Assembly: GCA_964649305.1 (NCBI GenBank)
Contig: CAZYOT010000003.1
Location: forward strand, 1 to 27,916
DNA: 27,916 nucleotides
Source: an uncultured Bdellovibrionales bacterium
GTDB lineage: Bacteria; Patescibacteriota; Minisyncoccia; Moranbacterales; UBA1568
Direction: 5' to 3'
The notes beneath the pieces were generated by a model. It ran no database searches and was not told the origin of the DNA. It saw only the letters and a program-made list of their open reading frames with translations. The position numbers and the translations under genes are program-made. Below are positions 13,801-27,528 of this stretch, piece after piece. How positions within the stretch are numbered: position 1 is the stretch's first letter; each line of letters opens with the position of its first letter.

Positions 13801-14326
13801 GACCAAGCTCAAGAAAGAAATTATCTTTACCAAAAATATCTTCGTACTCGAGAGCTAGCATCTTAGCACGCTCATAGTTGCCATAGAGGAGCTCTGATGG
13901 AATTTCGCCCTGAAGTGATCCCGAGAGAGCAATGAGTCCTTTGCCATATTCACGAAGAAGCTTCTTGTCGGCACGAGCTTTGTAGTAAAAGCCATCCAGC
14001 TGAGCGATAGAGATGAGCTTCATGAGATTCTTGTAGCCCACTTCATCTTCTACCAGGAGGACAAGCTGATGGCGACGACGATCCTCAGCTGTATTGTTTT
14101 TGCTCAGGTGGTCTTTGCAAATAAATATTTCTGCTCCGAGGATAGCCTTGATGTCATATTCTTTGGCTTTGGTATAAAACTCCACAGCACCATACATAGC
14201 ACTTGTATCAGTAATAGCAAGCGCCGTCATACCCATAGCCTTAGCCTCAGCCAAGAGATCTTCTATCTTAGGGAGAGCGGTGAGGAGTGAGTAGTGAGAA
14301 TGCGTGTGGAGGTGGACAAATGACAT
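10838..14326 (-). CDS. dnaE: DNA polymerase III alpha subunit (DnaE, with PHP domain)
   Basis: MSFVHLHTHSHYS, GPGRGSAAGS, FERFLNPERISMPDVDMDF, GLLKMDFLGL, YGFNRSHAACY, OB fold. The start is set at ATG 14326, giving 1162 aa. Confidence 0.99.
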   Translation of the reverse strand: MSFVHLHTHSHYSLLTALPKIEDLLAEAKAMGMTALAITDTSAMYGAVEFYTKAKEYDIKAILGAEIFICKDHLSKNNTAEDRRRHQLVLLVEDEVGYKNLMKLISIAQLDGFYYKARADKKLLREYGKGLIALSGSLQGEIPSELLYGNYERAKMLALEYEDIFGKDNFFLELGPHLDNENQMTVNQGLIQISQETGIPVVAACDVHYVKKEHAEIQDILLCIRDNKKVSDHERFSMRSLDLSFRSPEEMTNLFAAIPEAISNTEAIADRVHFKLHTGENQLPSFPLPEGKTADGYLRELCESGLHKRYPDQSVLTEEHITRLNYELKIIEGTGFASYFLIVQDFVNWAKNNGVVTGPGRGSAAGSFVAYLTGITDLDPIKYDLLFERFLNPERISMPDVDMDFADNRRDDVLNYVRSKYGNDHVAQIITFGTMAARAAIRDVGRALGYPYDICDKTSKMIPMFTSIKKALEEVPEFTSWYESSADVKKLIDAAMTVEGLCRHASMHACGVVITEHPVTEYTPLQRVSGSREGVVTQYAASTKANAVEKIGLLKMDFLGLKNLTIIQNTLRIVRKTRDVEVNIEDIPLDDDATYKLLQDAHTTGIFQLESAGMKRYLKQLKPTVFEDIIAMVALYRPGPMEYIPDFIAGKHGTKQVKYLHPILEPILKNTYGVAVYQEQLMQIARDLAGFTLGEADVLRKAVGKKILSLVQEQREKFVEGCIATGVGKTIGEKVFVFIEPFAGYGFNRSHAACYALIGYQTAYLKAHYPAEFMAALLTSDQDNIDRVAIEVHEAREMGIEVLPPDVNESFEEFAVVPDKANHNGGNIRFGLNAIKNVGHVVAQEIVEERKRNGRYETLEALTERVQTKDLNKKSIEALTKVGALDFFGERNQLLQSLDAILKHAKNSKNLLENHTNSLFGDMPLPETKIHLAAAEPATKKMRLAWEKELLGLYVSDHPVAEYQEYLNKTALPINELEKVTPGRTVRIGGVISKVRKILTKTGNTMFFVGLEDMTGQIEILVFGKIAEQTESLWHEDEMVIVTVKVNQKDGDIRIMAESGEKLSLENVSQFTRHEITRTRSAEAALLRTPIAPSNITVTIDSQAPGSVIEDLSRLLKKAPLGDQKVSVCIAGQTIATSFSITTNDELLEEIKNLTGVSGINI

Positions 14327-14344
14327 AGAGAAGTAATTTGAGGC

Positions 14345-14372
14345 AAAATAAAAACCGCCAAAAAATGCGGCT
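14345..14372 (-). terminator. Terminator-like hairpin just upstream of dnaE
   Basis: Minus strand AGCCGC-8nt-GCGGTT followed by TTTATTTT, ending ~19 nt before the dnaE ATG. Confidence 0.5.
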
Positions 14373-14684
14373 AAAAACGAAATGAAAATGCGTATATCAT
14401 AGGTGTATAGTCCCTCAGTAGCCAGGGTAAACCAAAAGGCATATGCAGGGAAAATCAATGTACTCCTAGTTTACCCCGCGCGACAATTTTAAACAAGCAT
14501 TTCAAAAACTGAACATAAAACCAAAAGTAGGACTTTTTTAGGAGGATACCTAAGATGATTACAAGGTATGAGATAAAAACTTTAAAATTGTAGCCCAGGG
14601 TATAGCAGAAAAGCCAAACCCCCTCCACATGCAGTTGCACGGAAGGGGGTAAGAGGTCCAAGGACTGGGACTTGTCCTAGTAAT

Positions 14685-15014
14685 TTAAGCCTTTCGTAAT
14701 CGTTGTAGATAGAGGATGATTTCCAGGGCGATGAGCGCTCCGATATACCACTGCCAGCCAGGGACGAGATATGGAGGAGTGTTTTGTTTGTTAAAAAACA
14801 ATAATCCAAATGCAAAAATCCCCATACAAGTCATAGCTGATATTGGCGAGTTCCATTTTTGGGTAAAACAAAGGTACCCAGTGCCGAAGATAATCAGGAA
14901 CAAAATAAATTGTGCCTGTTGCACTTGACTTGGGGGCATGTAATAGCCAACAGCTGCAAAAAGCAGCAAAGCAACAACACTAATAATAGAGCGCTTATTG
15001 TTTGTGATGATCAT
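14685..15014 (-). CDS. Hypothetical small multi-pass membrane protein (109 aa)
   Basis: Four hydrophobic segments. GGAG lies 9 nt upstream of the ATG. Confidence 0.7.
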   Translation of the reverse strand: MIITNNKRSIISVVALLLFAAVGYYMPPSQVQQAQFILFLIIFGTGYLCFTQKWNSPISAMTCMGIFAFGLLFFNKQNTPPYLVPGWQWYIGALIALEIILYLQRLRKA

Positions 15015-19377: not shown

Positions 19378-21693
19378 GTGTATCTCAAGAAAGTTGAAAT
19401 TAACGGGTTCAAATCATTTGCCAACAAGACAGTGTTGGATTTTTCTGCCTATCCGGCAGACAAGTCGCCGACCCTGGACTCTGGCTCGAGTATTGCTCGT
19501 ACGATTACCGCTATCGTGGGTCCTAATGGCAGTGGTAAGTCCAATGTAGCTGATGCTATCCGTTGGGCGATTGGTGAGCAGTCGGTTAAGAATCTGCGTG
19601 GTAAGAAATCAGAAGATGTGATTTTTGCGGGTACTGACAAGAAGGCCCGTATGGGAAGTGCTTCGGTGACGCTTCATTTTGATAATAGTGATAAGCGTAT
19701 CCCGATTGAGTTTGGTGAAGTTTCTATTACTCGCAAAGTCTACCGTAGTGGTGAGAGCGAGTACCTGATCAATGGTTCTAAGGTCCGTCTTTTGGATATT
19801 ATCGACCTTCTTGCCAAAGCGGGTATCGGTAAGGATAGCTACTCAGTCATTACTCAGGGTATGAGTGATGCTACGCTTCAGGCCACACCGCTTGAGCGTA
19901 GGAGTATTTTTGAGGACGCTGCCGGAGTCAAGCAGTATCAGATAGAAAAAGAGCGTTCACAGAGGAAGCTTGTGAATACCGAAGAAAATCTCGCTCGTGT
20001 AGAAGCCTTGATACAGGAAATCGAGCCCCATCTCAAAGGTCTTAAGCGTCAGGCAGAGAAAGCCTCACAGGGGAAGGATGTAGCTTTGAGACTCTATGAA
20101 AAACAAGTCTTGCTTTACGGCTATCTTTGGAAGCAGTTTGAAAAAGAACGTAGCACTGTCTTGGTAGAGCGTGACACTTTGCAGAAGCGTGTATTTGAAT
20201 TGGAAGTCAGTACCAATACGCTTTCAGGTGAGATGACTGTCCTCCGAGAAGAACTTGAAGGTGAGCAAGAAGAAGTAGAGCTCGTGAAAACCCTTGATAC
20301 TCTCCGGGCTGAGCAGAATGACATCGAGCGTAAGCAGAGTGTGCTCCGCGGTAAGATGGAGATTGAGCGTGAACGTCAGAAAGAAGAGGAAGTGATTCGC
20401 ACTATCCCAGTGGATTTGCCGTATGTCCAAAAAGCCCTTGATGCAATTCGTGAGGCTCAAGGAGTACTCGTAAAAAGCATTGCTAAGTGCCAGAGTCTTG
20501 AAGAACTGGTGACGCTCAAGAAGCAAGCGGAAGCTATCCAAGAGCAATTGAGTGAGCTTAATACCAAGGCGAGTGAGGGGAGTGTCAAAGAAGTCCAGGT
20601 CATTCGTTTACCAGTGGCAGAAAAAGAGGCCAGTGATGCTCGTATCAAAGAGAGCGAAGATGAGCTCAAGGCTATGAGTGCTCGCTATGAAGTGGTCAAG
20701 AAGTCTATCAAAGACCTCGAAGAAAAAATCACTACCTCACGTGATGCTACCAAAGCCAAGCGAGACGCTTTTTTTGATAAAGAAAAAACTTGGCGTGAAA
20801 CCGAAATGGAGTTGGCTCGCAAAAAAGATGCTCTTAATGAAATCAAAGTACGTTTGGCTCGAGTGGAAGTGCGTGAAGAGGATTTGACCAAGCTTGTACA
20901 AGAAGAGTTAAACGTGGCTCCGACTACACTAACCTACAATGAGAACACGCCAGTAGAACGTGAACGCCTAGAGCGCGAGATTACGCGTCTCAAGGTAGAA
21001 GTGGAGCACATCGGGAGTATTGATCCAGAAGTGGTCCATGAGTACGAAGAAACTCAGGAGCGTTTTGACTTCCTTACGCGTGAGTCGGGTGATCTACGTC
21101 AGGCCATGGAGAGTTTGGTCACAGTGATTGCGGAAATGGACCAAAAAATTGAGCATGCTTTCAAGAAGGCTTTTCATGATATCCGTGAAAAATTTGCTGA
21201 GAACTTTAAGATTATATTTGGAGGAGGTAAGGCTGAGCTTTCGCTCGTAGCGGTCCAAAAAAGAAAGCGCAATGTCGATGCCGAGCTTGAGGGTGAAGCT
21301 GTGGACGAGGAAGTAGCTCTCGAAGAGTCTCAGTCTGGGATTGAAATCTATGCCTGCCCACCAGGTAAGAAAATTACCAACTTATCTATGCTTTCCGGTG
21401 GAGAACGTTCTCTGACGTCACTCGCCCTTCTTTTTGCCATTATTTCATACAATCCGCCACCATTTGCGGTCCTTGATGAAGTGGAAGCGGCTCTCGATGA
21501 GGCTAATTCACGCCGTTTTGGGAAGATGCTCGGAGAGCTTTCTCGAGAGACTCAGTTTATCGCCATTACTCATAATCGCGAGACTATGTCGCATGCCAGC
21601 CTCCTTTATGGCGTTACTATGGGAGCAGACGGTATTTCGCAGCTTCTTTCTGTCCATTTGGATGAAATAGAGAAAAAAGTGCTTAAGGCTTAA
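19378..21693 (+). CDS. smc: SMC-family ATPase, short (771 aa), no recognisable canonical hinge
   Basis: GTG start, YLKKVEINGFKSFA, Walker A GPNGSGKSN, Q-loop VITQG, FEDAAGV, signature LSGGERSL, Walker B/D-loop VLDEVEAALDEAN, THN. It lies in the rnc-smc-rpsP context. Confidence 0.93.
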   Translation: MYLKKVEINGFKSFANKTVLDFSAYPADKSPTLDSGSSIARTITAIVGPNGSGKSNVADAIRWAIGEQSVKNLRGKKSEDVIFAGTDKKARMGSASVTLHFDNSDKRIPIEFGEVSITRKVYRSGESEYLINGSKVRLLDIIDLLAKAGIGKDSYSVITQGMSDATLQATPLERRSIFEDAAGVKQYQIEKERSQRKLVNTEENLARVEALIQEIEPHLKGLKRQAEKASQGKDVALRLYEKQVLLYGYLWKQFEKERSTVLVERDTLQKRVFELEVSTNTLSGEMTVLREELEGEQEEVELVKTLDTLRAEQNDIERKQSVLRGKMEIERERQKEEEVIRTIPVDLPYVQKALDAIREAQGVLVKSIAKCQSLEELVTLKKQAEAIQEQLSELNTKASEGSVKEVQVIRLPVAEKEASDARIKESEDELKAMSARYEVVKKSIKDLEEKITTSRDATKAKRDAFFDKEKTWRETEMELARKKDALNEIKVRLARVEVREEDLTKLVQEELNVAPTTLTYNENTPVERERLEREITRLKVEVEHIGSIDPEVVHEYEETQERFDFLTRESGDLRQAMESLVTVIAEMDQKIEHAFKKAFHDIREKFAENFKIIFGGGKAELSLVAVQKRKRNVDAELEGEAVDEEVALEESQSGIEIYACPPGKKITNLSMLSGGERSLTSLALLFAIISYNPPPFAVLDEVEAALDEANSRRFGKMLGELSRETQFIAITHNRETMSHASLLYGVTMGADGISQLLSVHLDEIEKKVLKA
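19444..19464 (+). repeat. Short palindrome inside an SMC head loop insertion
   Basis: TCTGCC-TATCC-GGCAGA-CAAG, encoding SAYPADK within extra residues before the Walker A strand. Same arms and CAAG tail as the 21746-21783 element. Confidence 0.5.
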
Positions 21694-21745: not shown

Positions 21746-21783
21746 TCCGCCTTATGAAAGAATTAAGGCTACGGGCGGACAAG
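21746..21783 (+). repeat. Palindromic element in the rpsP 5' leader
   Basis: TCCGCC(21746-51)/GGCGGA(21774-79)-CAAG with an inner GCCTTA/TAAGGC hairpin. Confidence 0.65.
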
Positions 21784-27144: not shown

Positions 27145-27528
27145 CTAAAATTGGAGCCTTTTGGCCGGAAAGTCCTTGATACGGCCTTTTTCATCAAGTT
27201 TGATACCCTCCTTTTTGTAGAGCTTGAGGCGCTTTTCTTCATATTCTGGGCTCATCCAGACTCGGCCATCGCTATAGACGATACGGTGGAAAGGGATACC
27301 CTTCTCGCCATTTTGGTAGGCTCTGGCTAAGATAGATGTCACGCTCATAGCTGCCATGTTAGATTGGCCGCCCCCGCCTGCAACGCTATGCGTAGCATTG
27401 CGGGCAGGACCACAAGCCCGGGCAATATCCCCGTAGGTAGAGACTCTACCAGATGGAATAGAAAGAGCCAAGCGGACGACGCGTTCGCTAAAGGTAGGGG
27501 AGAGTTTTTTGGTAGGGATTTTTTTCAT
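27145..27528 (-). CDS. Alkyltransferase-like (ATL; MGMT DNA-binding family) protein
   Basis: FSERV...IPSGRVSTYGDIA and IPFHRIV (catalytic PCHR Cys replaced by Phe). It carries a 12-aa insert after the first HTH helix. Confidence 0.88.
   Translation of the reverse strand: MKKIPTKKLSPTFSERVVRLALSIPSGRVSTYGDIARACGPARNATHSVAGGGGQSNMAAMSVTSILARAYQNGEKGIPFHRIVYSDGRVWMSPEYEEKRLKLYKKEGIKLDEKGRIKDFPAKRLQF
27373..27408 (-). mobile_element. 36-nt palindromic element inserted in frame in the ATL gene
   Basis: CCTGCCCGCAATGCTACGCATAGCGTTGCAGGCGGG encodes exactly codons 41-52 (PARNATHSVAGG). It has a 9-bp hairpin GCAATGCTA/TAGCGTTGC and GC-rich arms. Confidence 0.75.

Follow-up and report, generated by a model that had tools for sequence, protein, structure and literature searches.

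A 36-nucleotide segment within an alkyltransferase-like gene of the 27,916-nt stretch of DNA analysed here (the window) is an insertion, and it belongs to a repeat family with about 13 loci in this genome, which extends to most of the genus and to several phyla. Copies inside genes are overwhelmingly 36 nt long, in phase 0 and co-oriented with the host gene. The segment is probably one copy of a dispersed, non-autonomous hairpin element, a miniature selfish repeat of the REP or RPE (Rickettsia palindromic element) kind. The organism is a small-genome CPR bacterium, and its genome is present in wastewater and activated-sludge samples. The features of the window referred to in the text are the following.

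27145 to 27528, minus strand: host gene, encoding a 127-aa MGMT-family DNA-binding protein with PFHR for PCHR (alkyltransferase-like, ATL), identified by PF01035, homologues, alignment and AlphaFold.
27373 to 27408, minus strand: 36-nt GC-rich hairpin element between codons, read as PARNATHSVAGG (residues 41 to 52), defined by sequence, GC content, fold, absence from orthologues, family and run boundaries.
27337 to 27372, minus strand: diverged patch 3' of the insert, GGQSNMAAMSVT, where near relatives have GGP--MASQSIT; it comprises two additional codons and the beginning of the recognition helix.
19453 to 19488, plus strand: possible decayed copy in smc, PADKSPTLDSGS, at the position matching an intact copy, PARNASHNDAGG, in the smc of genome G042; uncertain.

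The host gene and its orthologues

The ORF at 27145-27528 matches the MGMT DNA-binding domain (Pfam PF01035, 8e-11). Its product has PFHR where methyltransferases have PCHR and is therefore alkyltransferase-like; the acceptor cysteine is replaced in the window's protein and in its homologues, which by sequence meets the definition of an ATL. Homologues numbered 928, some of them labelled Atl1 by their source, and the alignment and spacing counts given here refer to the best 120 of the 928. The window's protein retains all 32 invariant columns of this alignment. The 12-residue gap expected by an earlier reading of the DNA (the sequence-only reading) was found, the insert being absent from 107 of the 120 homologues, in which the TYG-to-HR spacing is 34 residues against 48 in the window's protein. 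The nearest proteins (P0002-P0004, 87% identity over the alignment) lack it and read ARACG-GGPM, as does the orthologue of G015, a genome of the same genus, whose codons TGT GGT ^ GGC GGG CCT ATG face TGT GGT [36 nt] GGC GGC CAA TCT AAC ATG in the window.

Without the insert the window's protein reads ...ARACG|GGQSN..., to be compared with ARACGGGPM of the nearest homologues. The excision is not as clean as claimed earlier: two extra residues (SN) and a diverged MAAMSVT (MASQSIT in relatives) follow directly downstream. MAAMSVT is confined, among the 120 homologues, to the two insert-bearing ATLs P0001 and P0007, whose DNA has 18 of 21 bases in common over this stretch, the differences being synonymous. 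This patch is unexplained; flanking DNA could have been co-converted, or the recognition helix could have changed in compensation.

In the AlphaFold2 model of the window's ATL, pLDDT is 87-97 on either side and below 50 for residues 43-58, the insert being modelled as a low-confidence loop between the helix at 32-39 and the long recognition helix at 55-72. The surface-loop placement proposed earlier is in this sense matched by the prediction, and we infer that the loop sits in the turn of the helix-turn-helix, just before the recognition helix. Nearly the same loop carries an unrelated 16-residue insert (GAKSDD.VRSQQAKG) in P0023, P0027 and P0040, from another lineage, which marks it as a hot spot for insertions.

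The insert and its boundaries

The minus (coding) strand of 27373-27408, CCTGCCCGCAATGCTACGCATAGCGTTGCAGGCGGG, supplies 12 codons (P41-G52) of the ORF 27145-27528. Its GC content is 66.7% against 44.3% in the window, and as single-stranded DNA it has a predicted fold of -12.6 kcal/mol (z = -4.0; 0 of 200 shuffles as good), in agreement with its earlier description as GC-rich and structured. The minimum-energy fold consists of an outer stem of 5 bp (CCCGC/GCGGG), a middle stem of 3 bp and an inner stem of 4 bp closed by a triloop, while pairing of the first four bases, CCTG, with CAGG is also possible; both of the crossed arm pairings pointed out by the sequence-only reading are thus available to the element.

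The boundaries are backed twice independently, by the empty site of G015 and by the contigs of four public runs, in which unlike flanks start exactly at 27372/27373 and 27408/27409. Sequence, orthologue gap and run boundaries together bear out the view that exactly 12 codons had been inserted. Three studies have runs (X1, X2 and X4) that show the filled right-hand ATL junction. No contig of the four runs spans the whole insert, because contigs break inside the repeat, and no empty ATL allele was seen among these contigs. Summed contig depth over 27373-27408 was 3 to 100 times that of the flanks, lowest in X2 and highest in X3. In X3, an RNA run (metatranscriptome), the gene flanks are present and no contig crosses the element, which leaves this run uninformative on transcription through the insert. 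Contigs with the element occur in the X3 RNA library at depth 38-67, and one 3.8-kb contig has two copies, 1221 nt apart. Mobilisation was not observed. The predicted tryptic peptides at the junctions of the ATL insert are ...ACGPAR and NATHSVAGGGGQSNMAAMSVTSILAR.

Distribution of the repeat family

An nhmmer profile and a covariance model gave 12-13 element loci in the 0.87-Mb, 98-contig genome. With the profile, which was built on the copies first recognised, 11 loci are complete, C19:8067 is weak and one more is cut off where contig C29 ends; two contigs of the genome break inside a copy. Copies in this genome are mostly 36 nt long, with variants of 37, 39 and 45 nt. Within the window the covariance model gave no match besides 27373 at E <= 1, and the likeness claimed earlier to an element at 21746 is consequently not supported, the model giving no match there.

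In the genus, 33 of 50 genomes gave covariance-model matches, with up to about 20 loci each; the model found no element in the other 17, the closest relative among them; G015 is one of the genomes without a match. The motif search proposed with the sequence-only reading thus found the element again in both genome and genus. At least 118 stretches of species-representative genomes match a degenerate 36-mer pattern exactly. The taxa include, on the CPR side, Saccharibacteria, Microgenomates and Parcubacteria (with the labels Daviesbacteria, Gottesmanbacteria, Roizmanbacteria, Moranbacteria and Nomurabacteria) and, outside it, Verrucomicrobiota (including an Akkermansia MAG), Kiritimatiellia, Lentisphaerae, Bdellovibrionales and Gammaproteobacteria. 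Among the variants of this cross-phylum sample, the exact 36-mer of the window ranks second in frequency, with 25 occurrences among the matches listed. The earlier inference of an RPE-like process in this lineage is supported as to its kind but not as to its confinement, the same 36 nt being found in several phyla.

Variants of the element show compensatory pairs at positions 16:26 (T:A or A:T) and 12:30 (T:A or C:G), and its ends are CCYG... and ...GGCGGG. In the insertion flanks purines are weakly preferred at -1 and T is scarce at +2; as there is nothing beyond these, a strong insertion-site consensus was rejected.

Copies inside genes

Pairs of empty and filled sites are available for atpA, pheT, tatD and ATL, and in all four exactly 36 nt are inserted without target duplication. 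Compared with the orthologues of this genome, exact gaps of 12 residues, 36 nt in the DNA, are found in atpA (G059), pheT (G019) and tatD (G009 and G020). The argS of G062 is less clean, with a larger gap of 19 positions from its orthologue here. No clean gap is seen opposite the ileS of G047 (no gap at all) or the smc of G042 (6 positions): both sites are occupied by this genome's own residues and cannot serve as empty-site cases.

The window's exact 36-mer recurs in trpS of G005 (L190, G005:C22:4266-4301), in frame between KG and YGDFK, where it is read PARNATHSVAGG. This trpS copy produced a false weak 'ATL' match in the protein search. A second in-frame copy of this genome lies in rpsI (G000:C75:2-37, equal to L014:2-37), read as PARIATQSVAGG, in the N-terminal extension of ribosomal protein S9. 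The element is cut by the start of the contig; there is no start codon between the copy and the conserved S9 core, and the copy is therefore inside rpsI. These two peptides answer the proteome search suggested by the sequence-only reading. What would have refuted that reading, namely orthologues with the 12 residues and a motif occurring nowhere else, is not what was found.

Roughly a third of copies are gene-internal and in frame. Of 123 copies among the matches listed in the cross-phylum sample, 42 fall within ORFs of 200 aa or more and have 30 aa or more to either side of them; phases 0, 1 and 2 are represented among these 42 by 34, 2 and 6 copies (p = 3e-10). The phase-0 peptides are of the form PARNA[ST]xS[VD]AGG or PARIATxSVAGG; a basic reading, RPHRYAKRFGR, and a cysteine-containing one, PACNA...GR, are rare. 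With a cut-off of at least 150 aa, ORF-internal copies among the matches listed are co-oriented with the gene 51 to 10, and the orientation of intergenic copies between co-directional genes is 12 to 9. The element has no stop codon in any of its six frames, so the phase bias is not due to stop codons. On sequence evidence alone, the bias suggests that selection acts on the peptide and apparently keeps the hydrophilic reading that starts with Pro and ends in Gly-Gly. Phase and orientation together are compatible with translation and subsequent filtering by selection; that the insert is translated is inferred from these two biases and has not been observed.

Copies in gene-length ORFs of this genome and the genus sample are all 36 nt long (11 of 11), which agrees with the earlier expectation of lengths divisible by three, while the eight variants of 37-45 nt in the same material span no ORF of at least 120 aa; this difference is not significant alone. 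ORFs around the copies on C14, C10 and C4 were considered as host genes and rejected: none has a Pfam match and the C14 'ORF' overlaps a tRNA-Tyr gene, so these copies are intergenic.

Same-site and possible decayed copies

One of the homologues, P0007 (L013), is longer by 12 residues at this very codon boundary of ATL, where a family copy stands in inverted orientation, PAHSASHNDSGR. The two tatD copies, in G009 and G020, likewise share one site and are reverse complements of each other, 35 of 36 positions being identical; each of the two TatD proteins is only about 50% identical to that of this genome. In the absence of a strong insertion-site consensus, target specificity does not account for copies sharing a site in ATL and in tatD. 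Opposite orientation at one site is unexplained by simple one-off random insertion. Gene conversion from other copies may flip or overwrite an element where it stands, or else the targeting follows a rule that has escaped us.

The sequence-only reading had also likened the insert to an element at 19444. The extra residues at 19453-19488, which precede the Walker A strand of smc, do occupy the site where a relative's smc has an intact copy, but that the segment is an old decayed copy is uncertain, its DNA identity of 16/36 being within the random range and not above chance, without a covariance-model match. In ileS, G000:C31:10558-10604 has PDGTGGGQAGEE where the IleS of G047 has the element, PARNASRSDAGG, at the same length and with GGCGGGCAGG retained; the DNA identity of this candidate, 18/36, is borderline. 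Both decayed-copy readings rest only on matching position and length in protein alignments.

A small GIY-YIG nuclease as candidate partner

About eight small GIY-YIG genes are found in this genome, and only one of them, C31:1822-2130 (its protein is encoded by G000:C31:1825-2073), adjoins a family copy, a 45-nt variant 41 nt downstream. Rfam places a tmRNA gene at C31:1334-1737, the 5' end of which overlaps the hairpin by 2 nt; ARAGORN missed this gene. The order at G000:C31:1334-2130 (L023) is smpB, a GIY-YIG gene of 83-102 aa, the 45-nt hairpin variant and the tmRNA gene (ssrA). It is repeated in G006 (L026) and, with a diverged hairpin, in four further genomes.

In the wide sample, a GIY-YIG gene lies within 0-130 nt of a copy at 6 of 118 loci among the matches listed, all six inside or beside tRNA genes and with stubs of the tRNA 5' part; L164 is a tandem array of hairpin, gene, hairpin and gene. 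Adjacency is seen at 1 of 30 genus loci. Most copies are thus distant from every GIY-YIG gene, and most GIY-YIG genes have no copy beside them. Where the two are adjacent, copies are found both upstream and downstream of the gene. The element-adjacent genes have the C-terminal motif KTGFGR-YLKRR in common and group within one region of the GIY-YIG tree (label shuffles with equal clustering: 0 of 500), without forming a single clade (3 changes). The nearest solved relatives of the nuclease are UPF0213 proteins (1zg2, 1ywl), and NCBIfam gives only sub-threshold matches. Among genus genomes, a gene of the C31 type is carried by 7 of the 16 that are rich in the element and by 1 of the 34 that are poor in it (Fisher 7e-4), an association that the test overstates because the genomes are kin and not independent. 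Element-rich, near-complete genomes such as G048 lack a C31-type gene at 60% identity or above. Three of the about nine intergenic copies of this genome lie 44-73 nt from tRNA genes.

A small GIY-YIG nuclease of the KTGFGR-YLKRR clade may propagate or homogenise the element; we put this forward tentatively, the mobiliser being inferred only. By analogy, the data fit a nuclease-plus-hairpin module that may have solo hairpins elsewhere, much as RAYT relates to REP, without amounting to proof.

Three further loci of this genome may be recorded. At G000:C4:13207-13470 and 14262-14525 two identical 88-aa GIY-YIG genes stand between unrelated genes, each with the same 24 nt (TAGTTCACCCCGTTAGAGACTCGT) ahead, and look like a recently duplicated mobile cassette without a hairpin. 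At G000:C10:~14590-14860 the 5' part of a tRNA is broken by a 20-nt mini-hairpin (CCTGCCTGCCGGCAGGCAGG), followed by a broken GIY-YIG remnant and then by an intact tRNA; a similar mini-hairpin is found beside a tRNA at C30:5598. A small GIY-YIG gene at G000:C47:69-340 has a different GC-rich hairpin (CCCCTGGCCGCGCTCGTGGCGCAGCCGCGGGCAGG) about 40 nt upstream, which has only its end, GCGGGCAGG, in common with the element.

Alternative explanations and proposed mechanism

A near-identical element across phyla, with compensatory changes in its stems, implies a conserved recogniser, and the hairpin could accordingly be a cis signal useful to the host and under selection, either the site of an Ssn-like single-stranded DNA nuclease in transformation or recombination (compare the NTS in Neisseria) or a signal for RNA stability or processing, the gene-internal copies being tolerated by-products. 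The closeness of three intergenic copies to tRNA genes and the abutment of one on the tmRNA 5' end are in its favour, and an NTS-ssnA-NTS architecture with cleavage of single-stranded DNA has been published (PMC11893778). We nevertheless regard a cis signal as improbable, given the patchy distribution in the genus (17 of 50 genomes, the closest relative included, are without the element), the SRM motif being matched by 0 of 11 copies, with 3 matches in the genome against 1-4 in shuffles, and the third or so of copies located within essential genes, a setting in which one can hardly imagine a signal. Lacking a T-run, the hairpin is not an intrinsic terminator.

Size (36 nt), imperfect palindrome and dispersed copies would equally suit a REP element mobilised by a RAYT, that is an IS200/IS605-type Y1 transposase, and Y1_Tnp (PF01797) homologues do exist in this genome (C5:4963-5187 and C8:1907-2125) and in 13 of the 50 genus genomes. 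Their presence correlates poorly with element counts: the element-rich G048, G005 and G061 have no Y1_Tnp match while the element-free G044 and G018 have one, and six Y1_Tnp loci hold no element (best match E = 0.53). The terminal GTAG/CGTC tag of REP superfamilies (PMC3733652) is missing as well. On poor co-occurrence and lack of adjacency RAYT/IS200 was rejected as mobiliser, and we consider this origin very improbable. Least credible of all is that nothing mobile is involved, the 12 residues being an ancestral or lineage-specific loop with a chance palindrome, or an assembly chimera. The ATL loop does tolerate other inserts, as the 16 residues of P0023, P0027 and P0040 show, and P0007 has 12 extra residues at the same codon; yet that insert is itself a recognisable inverted family copy, the identical 36-mer is found in unrelated genes and other phyla, the nearest ATL orthologues lack it, and the filled junction recurs in independent runs.

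On the preferred reading, that of a selfish hairpin repeat, the element would have been copied precisely, without target duplication, between two ATL codons. It would then be transcribed and translated as a Pro-started, Gly-Gly-ended hydrophilic loop of 12 residues, and selection would keep insertions only in tolerant surface loops, in the single frame and orientation with a harmless peptide; these steps are inferred. With less support, the GIY-YIG nuclease, which resides with a hairpin copy at tRNA and tmRNA genes, may drive its spread; the likely route would be that the hairpin is cut while single-stranded and the break is repaired with another copy as template. Taken to its full extent, this would be an undescribed mobile system of hairpin and KTGFGR-clade nuclease, in which the gene homes into tRNA and tmRNA genes and the hairpin that the nuclease recognises is copied as a solo unit into single-stranded DNA genome-wide, crosses phyla, is repeatedly overwritten or inverted by gene conversion and, in unrelated bacteria, writes the same 12-residue loop into essential proteins. 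As a whole, this system is speculative and we hold it to be rather unlikely.

Significance

Very small mobile DNA can, on these results, remodel essential proteins. The hosts are core genes (ATP synthase alpha, PheT, IleS, ArgS, TrpS, Smc, S9, TatD and ATL), and a single 36-nt hairpin unit is about as small as a structured repeat can be. In-frame selfish palindromes are, to our knowledge, textbook knowledge only from Rickettsia, at about 150 bp. The copies constitute a natural experiment on which protein loops tolerate a fixed 12-residue insert. In ATL the loop adjoins the helix that reads damaged DNA, and the MAAMSVT change in that recognition helix may show the host protein adapting to its insert. 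The element is furthermore a marker of horizontal exchange among uncultivated bacteria and, since it breaks assemblies, is likely to cause artefacts in the alignment and annotation of CPR proteomes. If the GIY-YIG nuclease recognises the hairpin, Ssn/NTS biology would be extended to protein-coding DNA.

Comparison with known systems

Literature searches on the element's peptides and on palindromic and GIY-YIG hairpin elements of CPR bacteria returned no description, many subscription papers being beyond our reach. REP and REPIN sequences resemble the element in being imperfect, GC-rich palindromes of 20-40 nt with tens of copies, mostly intergenic, and with structure-preserving variation. They differ in that about a third of the copies here are in frame in genes, that the GTAG/CGTC tag (PMC3733652) is lacking, and that Y1 transposases neither co-occur with the element nor adjoin it.

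The NTS/SRM repeats of Ssn nucleases (Chenal et al. 2025, PMC11893778) are similar in their many hairpin copies and in their occurrence in several phyla; a copy flanking a single-domain GIY-YIG gene of about 85-100 aa is seen here only at a minority of loci (C31, L026 and the six of the wide sample). The published search motif, HGTCWYN(0-2)YYVSBRHN(0-5)WNVSBRGN(0-2)RNCYNB (PMC11893778), is however matched by none of 11 copies and is not enriched in the genome (3 against 1-4 in shuffled sequence), and identity of the element with the SRM repeat was rejected. The text of that paper mentions neither in-frame or intragenic copies nor Patescibacteria (PMC11893778).

RPEs are about 150 bp long and form ten families (PMC10969869). 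The element shares with them the dispersed palindromic repeat in frame in unrelated housekeeping genes, with a conserved and fold-compatible peptide, as well as intergenic copies and an unknown mobiliser. By in-frame position and conserved peptide it qualifies as an RPE, with 34 phase-0 copies among the matches listed; by size and taxon (100-150 bp, Rickettsia families) it does not, being 36 nt long and found in CPR, PVC and other MAGs. RPEs are confined to Rickettsia, whereas this is a single 36-nt hairpin of 12 residues, a quarter of the size of an RPE, near-identical in MAGs of CPR, PVC, Bdellovibrionales and Gammaproteobacteria, and with a candidate nuclease partner. It fails as a MITE, the four empty/filled pairs being without target-site duplication.

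Small GIY-YIG genes lodged in tRNA genes or next to them, where the 5' part of the tRNA is partly duplicated (L105, L164, L187 and C10), are reminiscent of free-standing GIY-YIG homing endonucleases at tRNA genes, such as SegB of phage T4. We know of no homing endonuclease that seeds solo repeats of such a kind. In contrast to these systems, the 36-nt hairpin is separable from the nuclease gene, travels far from it and lands in protein-coding genes.
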